Made by a program: the position numbers. Of a stretch of 64,000 nt of DNA, positions 54,001 through 57,000 are shown piece after piece. Source of the DNA: a virus (taxonomy: Duplodnaviria; Heunggongvirae; Uroviricota; Caudoviricetes); IMG/VR virus record IMGVR_UViG_2541047938_000006; one strand, written 5' to 3'. Position 1 is the stretch's first letter. Every line of letters starts with the position of its first letter.

Positions 54001-57000
54001 GACTGCACAATGTCCGCCACAGTTTCTGTTTTAATTTCTTCCTGTGTTGCGGCTTCCCGGACTGGTAACGCAGCACCTGCTGGCTGAGGAAAGGCCTTAC
54101 CATCATTTTCCGTTACCGGCGCGGTTTTCGGATCTGCTGGTAAATTACCCCCCGGCATGCAGTAACGAAATTTACCGTTCTGATTAACGCGTGCCAGCCG
54201 CCCCGTTGCGGTTACCACCGCCAGCGTGGAAGCAACCTTGCGAGTGGTAACTCCGAACTTACCCGCTATTTCTTCACAGGTTTTAGCCCCCTCCTGAGAG
54301 ATAAACTCAATCATCATGTCAGCGCTAACTTTTGGAGCGACCTCTTCGGTCAGCATATCCTGTGTTTCAGATTTTACTGGCCGCTCTTCGGTTACCTGGG
54401 ATTCACCTTCGACAGCCAGAAACCAGGTGTGACCCGTTTTATCAACAACGCCATTTTTTTTGAGTTCCCACAGTTCGTTGAGAACTTCTTCACGGCTGAT
54501 ATCAAGCCGCGCCGCCAGTTCAACAGAATTGGCTTTTCCCATCGCTTTCAGTGCATACAATACGGTTTCCATCGAAAATTTACCTCGTCAAAAATTCTCA
54601 CATACCCTGACGTCCAACGTTTGACCGCCAGCTCTCCCAGTTAAAATTCACCCAACGACCACCATTCATGGTCATACGGTCCATCACTCGCTCCCCCAGA
54701 AGCCTGCTCATCGCACCGTGATTCAGGTTAGTCAGCATCCCGACACTGCGCAGTGATGCCGTTCTGCGGTCGACGATCTGGTTCAGTATGACCTGCTCGT
54801 TGCGCGTATCCCGCTGCATGCCAATTTCATCAAGGACCAGAAGGTCAACTCCACAAAGCTCCTGTAAAAATTTTTCCCCGGACTTGCCGTTGTCGTAGCC
54901 GTCATGCAACACACTCATGACATCGGACACGGTGACGATAATCACGCTTCTCCCCTTCGCCATTAGCCAGTTGCCAATCGCTGCTGCAAGGTGATTTTTC
55001 CCGGTGCCAGGTTTACCGCTGAACACGAAATTCGTGCAGCCGGTATGCAGCTCTGCCGCGATGGATTTTGCCTGACTCAGAGCATGGCGCTGACCGTCGT
55101 TCTGCACCCGGTAGTTCCCGAATGAGCACTTCCTGTGAAGCGGCTGGATGCCCGAACGGTTCAGGATTTTTTCAACCCGCGCCTGATGATTCAGGCGGTT
55201 AATTTCCTCGCTGCGCTTACGGCCCTCAGCCAGTTGCCATTCCCGCCATTCGTCGGTCGTCCGGAACGGTGCTGCCACGTGCGGTGGTGCCAGACGGCGC
55301 ACCCGTTCAAGAATCCCTCCTGTCGAAATGTTTTTCATGGCTGATTACCCCCTGAAACCCGGCGGAATTTCGGTGTCCGGTTCAGAAATGTGATTCACGC
55401 AACGCAGGCTGACTGCGCCAGCCTTCGGCAGCGACCACGGATTTTCGAAATTCCTGTTCGGGCCAAAAAACGTCGATGCCTGCTGAACAAATTCAGTTCC
55501 CGCTTTCCCGGTAGCCTCCAGGTATCTTGCGTAACGCCTCACGCCATCCAGCACGACATCCGGTGACACCCCTTCGCGTAATCTGGCCCTCCAGGCATTG
55601 AACGCGGATTTCTTCGGGTTTGACCCTGCCCGATGCGGATATTCACGCCAGACCCGTTCGAACACGTCAGGATAATCAACTCGTCCCGCAGACGGTCCCG
55701 GCATCGCCCGGGTTAACCCAATCGGCTTCCCGCTCATCGCGGAATCGGCTTCAGGCTGCTGCGGTTGGCGTTGTTGCTCCGGTTCGACGATCAGCACCTG
55801 CTGCACACAACGCCCGGAATCTGCTTCCGGTGTCGTGCCAGCTGGTCCTGGACGTTCAGTCAGAACAGGACAAAAATCCCCCTGCGGGTCCGTGGCGATT
55901 TTTTCGCCATGGACCAGAAGGGTTTTATCCCTTTCCTGTTCTTGTTCTTGTTCCTGTTCCTGTTCTTGGCTTGAAAGGGGCTCTGAAGGGGCTTCAATTT
56001 TCCGACATGATTCACGTCTGACATCCAGGTGGAAATCATCCTTATATCTATCATAAAAGGATGATAAAAAAGGATTTTCCAGCAACGCGGAATATTCATT
56101 TCTTACCCCAGCACAACGGTTATCGCCAGGTTTCAGCGATTCACCAACCTGCCATGCTGCCATTTCATGCACCCATACAACCTCAGAATCATGGTCATAG
56201 CTGCAAAAACCAGCCTCGCAAGCCATTTGAAGCCCCTTAGAAGCCCCTTCAGGAGCAAGTCCGGTTTCGTGAGCAATGTACAAAACAGGCAGGTAATAAA
56301 GGCCCAGCATATTGGAATGAGGCGAGGTCATCATATACAACGCCACTACCATACATTCCGGACCAGACTTCCTTAGTTTTCGCCCTGTATCGCCTAACCA
56401 GAACTGAGGTGAAATTGTTGCGTAATTACGCATAGTCCCCTCGCATACAAGATTTACTCCATACCGCAGACGGTCCCGGTATCTCCCGGGTTAACCCAAT
56501 CGGCTTCAGGCTGCTGCGGTTGGTGTGACTGCACATTGGTGTGACTGCACATCTTCACAGACGGTCCCGGTATCTCCGGGTTAACCCAATCGGCTTCAGG
56601 CTGCTGCGGTTGGTGTTGTTGCTGGCGAAATTCTTCCAGATGTGGCAGAATTATTCCCGTGTATTGCTCCATGCCCTGCCTGAATATCAGATATTCATCA
56701 GGATTTGCTCAGAACGTCCGGCCCCAACCGGACGTTTTTTATTTGCATGAACGTTAATGGCATGCTGGAAAGCCCGGCTGATCGGACTGATATCAGATGC
56801 CATCTGAAACGCGCATAAAATCGCCGCGATGTATCGCCAGTCGGTACGACTGACCTTCGATTCATGGCAGCCAATCATCTTCGCCAGTCCCCTTTGCGTC
56901 AGAGCTGACAGGTTGATAAGTAAATCCGTTTCAGCGCGATCGATATCGCGCTGTGACAGTTTGCTGTAACTTGTTTGTGACATTTGTTAATTTTCCTATA

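Follow-up and report, generated by a model that had tools for sequence, protein, structure and literature searches.

The window analyzed here, a 64,000-nt stretch of a Caudoviricetes virus (IMG/VR record IMGVR_UViG_2541047938_000006), contains the early right operon of a lambdoid prophage, which is transcribed on the minus strand and in which long repeats lie upstream of and within the gene of a replication initiator (Table 1). On balance, we favor the view that these long repeats are a lineage-specific variable array that represents neither an array of initiator binding sites nor a conserved protein, and that the origin of replication most likely lies inside the initiator gene, where two clusters of short repeats were found. 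For the further proposal that the initiator binds these 9-mer clusters in its own coding sequence, so that the two form a previously undescribed origin/initiator pair, we see about even chances. The interval is more interesting for this probable in-gene origin, which an earlier sequence-only reading of the region had not flagged, than for the long repeats themselves.

The sequence-only reading had described two tandem repeats of about 55 bp upstream of the gene, a third copy inside it, and a palindrome in every copy. A repeat scan bore out this arrangement, with the copies termed A, B, and C in the following, and also the palindrome, as GGGTTAACCC is present once in each of them; the length needed revision, as the cores comprise about 62 to 66 bp. 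Copies A and B are arranged in tandem with a start-to-start distance of 90-91 bp, and they share 41 nt at 100% identity. Copy C is located 778 bp from the upstream copies, is 92% identical to copy B over 49 nt, and carries 23 extra nt that lie between two AATCGGCTTC direct repeats. The tandem unit consists of a core of about 62 bp, which contains the palindrome and is common to all three copies, and a spacer of about 29 bp with two copies of TTGGTGTGACTGCACA. In the entire 64 kb, the palindrome occurs exactly three times, whereas 0.06 occurrences were expected from shuffled sequences and none of 100 shuffles reached three.

To describe the variation of the array among relatives, 41 prophage or phage loci of the clade were oriented, and the distance between the ATG of the small open reading frame (ORF) that covers the array and the ATG of the initiator gene was measured. 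Six length alleles were found: 149 nt (one unit; 5 loci), 223 nt (two units with one 16-mer; 2 loci), 239 nt (two units in the window's arrangement; 30 loci), 262 nt (two units, one of them with the 23 nt; 1 locus), 329 nt (three units; 2 loci), and 398 nt (three 113-nt units, all with the 23 nt; 1 locus). The alleles span one to three units, with or without the 23-nt segment, and zero to four of the 16-nt units. The array is a variable-number tandem repeat, because the spacer alleles differ by whole units, with 149, 239, and 329 nt corresponding to one, two, and three units of 90 nt among near-identical genomes. It is confined to one closely related group of E. coli/Shigella prophages of the Eru4 type. 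A second length-variable repeat is found within the gene, as the hexamer tract encoding (QE)n ranges from 24 to 48 nt (4 to 8 QE pairs) across the 41 near-identical loci.

The possibility that the repeats form an origin with unusually long iterons, which had been raised from the sequence alone, was not supported by these comparisons. Wherever the DNA-binding domain of an initiator occurs, its binding sites would be expected as well; the long repeats do not follow the domain in this way and are therefore unlikely to be iterons. In 49 IMG/VR loci whose initiators have an N-domain with 78% (L038-L062) or 73% (L063-L086) identity, there was neither a GGGTTAACCC near the gene nor a pair of upstream and internal repeats, and the palindrome and the upstream array were likewise absent from about 70 more distant loci of other genera and phyla, whereas the 9-mer clusters are present in all those loci. 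The long-repeat sequence is instead part of the exchangeable C-terminal module and linker; in phage Tritos, these are paired with an unrelated N-domain, and the palindrome is absent. The repeat period, 90-91 bp in the window and 113 bp in the relative L004, with one to three upstream copies, is variable and differs from the spacing of about one to two helical turns in known iteron arrays. There is also no A+T-rich neighbor: the GC content over 30 nt is 0.53-0.63 across 56463-56613 and 0.63-0.67 around copy C. Finally, the long-repeat unit has no match to the family-wide 9-mer AAGSSSCTT.

It is unlikely, in our view, that the long repeats are functional protein-binding sites of some kind, be it long iterons, an auxiliary origin or control locus comparable to oriR of SPP1, or sites for a phage or host factor that tunes the initiator or oop, with GGGTTAACCC as the core bound by a dimer. 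Several observations do favor such a role and thereby weigh against our interpretation. The palindrome is perfect in all three window copies, far above expectation, and in nearly all copies of the relatives. Copy C lies in the interdomain linker, which is exactly where the iterons of lambda lie (PMC7466680), and SPP1 provides a precedent for initiator-binding repeats inside and outside an initiator gene (PMC6316719). At least one upstream copy was found at every clade locus (41/41), with two copies in all four isolated, viable phages, a pattern for which selection, and not shared ancestry, may be responsible. Copies in the same genome stay similar to each other, and concerted evolution is also typical of functional binding-site arrays. 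The array abuts the putative oop promoter, so that a regulatory effect is possible, and our conclusion that the repeats are not iterons draws on their comparative absence from relatives. On the other hand, copy number, the 23-nt segment, and the 16-nt spacers vary freely, and one of the L011 copies as well as variant P0128 no longer have the palindrome.

The short repeats inside the gene combine a regular direct-repeat spacing, an adjacent A+T-rich element, a constraint on the DNA that goes beyond coding, and co-occurrence with the DNA-binding domain. The repeat scan identified an inverted pair (55975-55997 and 56227-56249), with two 9-mers 11 bp apart in each arm, that flanks an A+T-rich patch, and the 64 kb contain the exact 10-mer GAAGCCCCTT three times, always within the initiator gene. 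We surveyed 70 loci of the family from 76 species-level genomes with GC contents of 0.40-0.69, which included Gamma-, Beta-, and Alphaproteobacteria, Acidobacteriota, Planctomycetota, and others, and counted AAGGGGCTT or AAGCCCCTT with at most one mismatch as a match. In 67 of the 70 loci, 9-mers with 11-bp spacing are present at +185/+196 and at about +429 to +463. Their density is 7.1 per kb inside versus 0.25 per kb outside, which corresponds to a 28-fold enrichment, and the cluster arrangement is conserved from Enterobacteria and Acinetobacter to Rhizobium, Acidobacteriota, and Planctomycetota.

An alignment of N-domain homologues showed two family-wide peptide motifs at the clusters, EGASKGL and, just before the (QE)n tract, EAPSKPL, the latter being the DNA of EGASKGL when its opposite strand is translated in the same frame. 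In some family members, the second site also encodes EGASKGL: the two clusters have opposite orientations in most lineages but are parallel in the enterobacterial groups, where EGASKGL replaces EAPSKPL. These orientation flips argue for a recognition of duplex DNA rather than for mRNA pairing. The synonymous codons at the motifs are fixed to a far greater extent than gene-wide usage, with GGG at 100 versus 28%, GCT at 84 versus 21%, CTT at 87 versus 19%, GCC at 100 versus 35%, CCT at 96 versus 28%, CGA at 100 versus 14%, and AGC at 100 versus 26%. Over 59 loci and a range from -600 to +1200, the deepest GC dip (-0.13) is found at +390, just upstream of cluster 2, and part of this family-wide dip may stem from amino-acid composition. 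Two further aspects temper the interpretation as binding sites. Cluster 1 encodes a highly conserved helix, and its conservation is in part at the protein level, and the two clusters are complementary in the mRNA of most lineages, where a role in RNA pairing is possible. If the clusters are indeed the binding sites, the winged-helix N-domain would bind both of them, and the A+T-rich patch in between would be melted for DnaC-assisted helicase loading.

Additional non-coding 9-mers, again spaced by 11 bp, lie upstream of the start at -37 to -12 in six loci (L095, L099, L101, L104 (Acinetobacter), L125, and L130) that come from Acinetobacter, Pseudoxanthomonas, and Enterovirga; they look like autoregulatory or auxiliary initiator sites. 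In the Tritos locus (L006), two clusters of four CGTGAC, 260 bp apart, are present in the part coding for the N-domain (3145-3183 and 3405-3443), and these are probably the iterons of that phage.

The initiator itself has a winged-helix N-domain (residues ~1-145), a linker with (QE)6 and PEADS, and a C-domain with a DnaT-like tail. The predicted (QE)n coding by a hexamer tract was confirmed, as TTCCTG/TTCTTG is repeated six times at the position given in Table 1, and such a tract was found throughout the protein family. An AlphaFold model of residues 1-155 shows a winged helix with a predicted local distance difference test (pLDDT) score of 85, in which the EGASKGL segment forms the third helix, and a Foldseek comparison of this N-domain model with the PDB returned only generic winged-helix proteins with E >= 0.015, which pointed to no specific family. 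The earlier term "O-like gene" is apt in so far as the gene is the positional equivalent of lambda O; it does not apply in the sense of homology, as the protein has no Pfam match and has its best PHROG match in PHROG 1701. No Pfam family was found at E <= 0.01, including PF04492, and membership in the lambda O family (Pfam Phage_rep_O) was rejected for lack of a profile match. NCBIfam and PDB sequence searches with the initiator detected only a weak similarity to the C-terminus of the primosomal protein DnaT, which concerns the last ~25 residues (55345-55420) with the tail ...VNHISEPDTEIPPGFRG and is seen with the PDB entries 2ru8, 6aep, and 9zbt (E 0.0085-0.027) and with NCBIfam NF002770 (E 0.009). 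This DnaT-like tail hints at a shared partner-binding peptide. Tritos has the C-terminal module in common with the window, combined with an unrelated N-domain of the replisome-organizer type.

The part of the gene that contains copy C encodes a portion of the flexible linker that joins the N-terminal DNA-binding domain and the C-terminal domain, and every upstream unit contains a duplicate, ~62-85 bp long, of this linker-coding DNA. The 23-nt linker form, with two GAAGCCGAT units, is also present in the initiator genes of the L038 group of E. coli and of phage Tritos, neither of which has an upstream array. This linker form is thus the ancestral one, and because it occurs in these array-less genes, the upstream units are taken to derive from the gene, the array being a duplicate of gene-internal DNA made in the direction from the gene to the upstream region. 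The units of the window have presumably lost the 23 nt later by slippage. This agrees with the part of the sequence-only reading that considered a duplication; the associated idea of a displaced start of the initiator could not be maintained, as "MR.Y..." is the N-terminus across the family. The earlier reading had also considered that relatives might have the repeats entirely within a longer intact O gene, and this is not the pattern seen in the relatives that we checked.

The copies within one genome resemble each other. In L004, all four copies share CCTGATGCC, whereas all copies of the window have CCTGAAGCC, and the gene-proximal unit of L004 has further variants in common with its internal copy. 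This likeness within genomes points to exchange between the copies. Recombination between an upstream and the internal copy is expected to produce the structure found in L003 (E. coli SW071611, 2490-2580), where a single hybrid copy has the copy-C variant on one side and the flank of copy A on the other. L003 lacks everything between the copies, so that the N-terminal domain and the candidate origin are lost, and its initiator is annotated by NCBI PGAP as a pseudogene without N-terminus. Although L003 could formally be the ancestral, "empty" state, the frameshift in it speaks for a deletion that is derived. The same type of structure is present in a second record, SW07163.

In gene orientation, the DNA becomes homologous to that of Tritos about 50 bp upstream of copy C. 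The array is a copy of the 5' end of the C-terminal module, and it is situated at the junction of the immunity/cII/oop module and the replication module. The duplicate may be pictured as having arisen by recombination at the junction of two exchangeable modules; for example, after a single-crossover insertion or a replacement of an N-domain cassette, the shared segment would flank the cassette on either side in direct orientation. Slippage or unequal crossing-over could then have expanded and contracted the array, and gene conversion would keep it similar to the internal copy. In this sense, the long repeats are probably a neutral, unstable array derived from the linker, whose visible effect is to promote the deletion of the DNA-binding half of the initiator. 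The N-domain and the origin would form a cassette that is bracketed by long direct repeats and hence can be excised and exchanged, its loss resulting in a replication-dead prophage; together with the proposed origin/initiator pair, we would give this picture equal odds of being right or wrong.

A related possibility is that an older initiator gene, which started right after cII like lambda O, has left the array as a vestige: its N-terminal part would have been replaced by the present N-domain cassette, with the old 5' end and a piece of the linker remaining upstream. This is a modified version of the displaced start, and it overlaps with our main explanation in that it describes one route of duplication. 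Some support comes from the unique 50 bp between cII and the array, which align to the junction of the cII end, oop, pO, and O start of lambda with the ATG of lambda O opposite a CTG of the window, from the small ORF, which reads QQQHQPQQPEAD in the same frame as QQRQPQQPEAD of the initiator, and from the demonstrable shuffling of N- and C-modules in the initiator gene family. Nevertheless, the present start (MR.Y) is ancestral for the family, with nothing displaced within the gene, and the similarity to lambda beyond cII is short (~22/34 nt) and may just reflect a conserved oop promoter. Moreover, a start "MEQYTGIIL..." that continues into a longer protein was found in no phage or genome: tblastn and distant blastn searches against phages and a search of 5.8 billion proteins for such a protein, or for an older context of the unique 50 bp, returned only variants of the ORF from E. 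coli or Shigella. We therefore regard a vestigial gene as doubtful, and the duplication of linker DNA from the present gene as the better explanation.

The third alternative concerns the 72-codon ORF over the array. It is annotated in every related phage record and forms a PHROG of its own, the first ~28 residues can be recognized in all alleles, the 90-bp unit is divisible by three, and its stop codon lies 20 nt before the initiator ATG, so that translational coupling would be possible. Its homologues in a collection of 5.8 billion proteins are restricted to E. coli and have 42 to 102 amino acids, the range over the alleles being 41 to 102. After residue ~28, they read different frames, with at least three different C-terminal frames, and the 113-bp unit allele breaks the frame, with no ORF annotated there by PGAP. 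Between the window and L004, the first 28 codons have 0 synonymous and 5 non-synonymous changes, in comparison to 13/7 in the initiator gene, 9/2 in cII, and 51/28 in the dnaC-like gene; the 0/5 of the ORF against the 73/37 summed over these three flanking genes gives a one-sided p of ~0.006. With neither frame nor length conserved and no excess of synonymous changes, the ORF is probably not a conserved protein, and it is very improbable that it is a real small protein with an internal repeat, such as a mimic of the initiator linker that modulates replication, with the DNA repeats being simply coding repeats.

The array also showed no sign of an RNA or promoter function in the analyses that were carried out. 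When both strands of the array were folded, the z-scores were -0.16 and -0.64, no better than shuffled sequences, and a promoter scan detected no sigma-70-like site in the array on either strand. An Rfam scan of 55000-58000 gave no match in the array; the only signal was a sub-threshold match to AgvB, a phage-encoded anti-GcvB small RNA, in the adjacent oop-like region (20.7 bits versus a gathering score of 56). Readings of the unit as a cII site (TTGC-N6-TTGC), a CRP-like site, or a DnaA box were dropped upon inspection by eye, as spacing or sequence did not fit.

In the oop-like region, an intrinsic terminator is predicted on the plus strand, which is the sole terminator-like site of note. 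The 3' end of cII and the sequence that follows align with the cII end, the oop terminator, oop, and pO of lambda, and therefore the unique ~50 bp between cII and the array are probably the oop promoter region, with the array starting at its putative -35 element.

In comparison to known systems, the module shares with lambda the gene order cII, oop, initiator, and helicase loader. Lambda-type origins inside O consist of four to six iterons of ~19 bp and an A+T-rich tract, as in lambda and in the Stx phages 933W and P27 (PMC7466680). The candidate origin and lambda ori are both embedded in the coding sequence of the initiator, with translated repeats and an adjoining A+T-rich tract. However, lambda has a single array in the linker, whereas the 9-mers have an 11-bp period and form two clusters, ~250 bp apart, that flank the A+T-rich patch, one of them within the DNA-binding domain and the other at its end. 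In addition, the initiator of the window is not an O homologue, and the long GGGTTAACCC repeats have no counterpart in lambda. The replisome organizer gp38 of SPP1 has its binding repeats and unwinding element (oriL) in its own gene 38, with a second origin, oriR, elsewhere (PMC6316719), which resembles the candidate sites inside the initiator gene and the second set of repeats outside. Unlike SPP1, in which the same boxes are present at both origins, the upstream array of the window has none of the 9-mers of the in-gene clusters and is instead a copy of linker DNA, and there is no detectable sequence relationship between the N-domains. The array also resembles the variable-number tandem repeats and recombination scars at module junctions of lambdoid phages in its location at the boundary of the immunity/cII and replication modules, in the polymorphism of unit number, in the 23-nt and 16-nt slippage products, and in the deletion between direct repeats. 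It differs from those junction repeats in that its unit copies adjacent coding DNA and in that the repeats bracket the DNA-binding domain and the probable origin.

The 1.4 kb around the repeats are 98-99% identical to four isolated phages, namely Shigella phages 75/02 Stx and POCJ13 and Escherichia phages PhiR5_2 and phiSTEC1589-Stx1c. The Eru4 replication type has been defined by gene content, with Shigella phage 75/02 Stx (NC_029120) as type phage (Fagerlund et al. 2022, PMC8951638). The module of the window belongs to this type: the same two genes lie beside cI, cro, and cII, the identity to NC_029120 is 98.6% over 1,421 bp with the same gene order, and the Eru4 region of phage 75/02 Stx contains the same array, small ORF, initiator, and DnaC-like gene. 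Among 5,426 complete E. coli genomes, we found the module in 81, some of which are O104:H4 outbreak strains. Fagerlund et al. 2022 refer to the Eru4 proteins as "unknown function" and "helicase" (PMC8951638); the words "repeat" and "iteron" do not occur in their text and no origin is mentioned, and neither of the two "Eru" papers mentions repeats or origins. In the open-access full-text literature, we found no description of the long repeat array or the in-gene 9-mer clusters, and a literature search with the motif strings returned unrelated primer matches only.

Table 1. Features of the replication region in the window (positions in the 64,000-nt stretch).
Feature	Position	Strand	Remarks
Candidate iteron cluster 1	56230-56249		Two copies of AAGCCCCTT (56230-56238 and 56241-56249) at 11-bp spacing; the coding strand specifies EGASKGL, the predicted recognition helix
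A+T-rich patch, candidate DNA unwinding element	56033-56078		78% A+T; short inverted repeat; between the clusters
Candidate iteron cluster 2	55975-55994		AAGGGGCTC and AAGGGGCTT at 11-bp spacing, inverted relative to cluster 1; codes for EAPSEPL, where the N-domain ends
(CAR GAA)6 tract encoding (QE)6	55933-55968	minus	Family-wide linker feature
Long repeat copy A, unit most distant from the initiator gene	56558-56623		GGGTTAACCC at 56578-56587; end abuts the putative oop-like -35
Long repeat copy B, gene-nearest unit	56464-56526		GGGTTAACCC at 56488-56497; end ~30 nt before the initiator ATG
Long repeat copy C, within the initiator gene	55686-55778		GGGTTAACCC at 55710-55719; encodes linker residues ...QQRQPQQPEADSAMSGKPIGLTRAMPGPSAGR
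Spacer between copies B and A	56520-56551		Two tandem 16-nt TTGGTGTGACTGCACA units; number varies among alleles (0, 1, 2, or 4)
72-codon ORF over the array	56454-56672	minus	PHROG 2751, hypothetical protein
Replication initiator gene, 362 aa	55345-56433	minus	PHROG 1701 "DnaD-like helicase loader"
DnaC/IstB-like helicase loader gene	54598-55338	minus	Directly downstream of the initiator gene
Oop-like antisense RNA	56659-56741 (ends approximate)	plus	Terminator stem 56711-56738; overlaps the 3' end of cII
Putative oop-like promoter	-10 56646-56651; -35 56623-56628		-10 CAGAAT; -35 TGGCGA (weak); adjoins copy A
cII	56687-56983	minus	PF05269; upstream neighbor of the array
cro-like gene	57100-57378		Operon transcribed on the minus strand
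cI	57435-58142	plus	

The Eru4 module is common in Shiga toxin 1 (Stx1)-converting and other E. coli and Shigella prophages, its origin has so far been undefined, and both lysogen stability and toxin output have been associated with the replication type (PMC8044961, PMC8951638). The separation of a neutral unstable array from the likely origin tells which DNA deserves testing. The direct repeats offer a simple route to the loss of the replication function in such prophages, and the array can be used as a length marker for their typing. If confirmed, the 9-mer clusters would define the origin of a widespread initiator family without Pfam match, and they would be a clear case of mutual constraint between binding sites and coding sequence that includes the DNA encoding the recognition helix.

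Two minor observations concern the neighboring genes. The cro-cI intergenic region contains a palindrome, AATAACAATTGTTGTT, at 57385-57400 that has an operator-like appearance, and an imperfect 18-nt inverted repeat (78% complementary, with a 4-nt gap) is located at 56923-56962 within the 5' part of cII.

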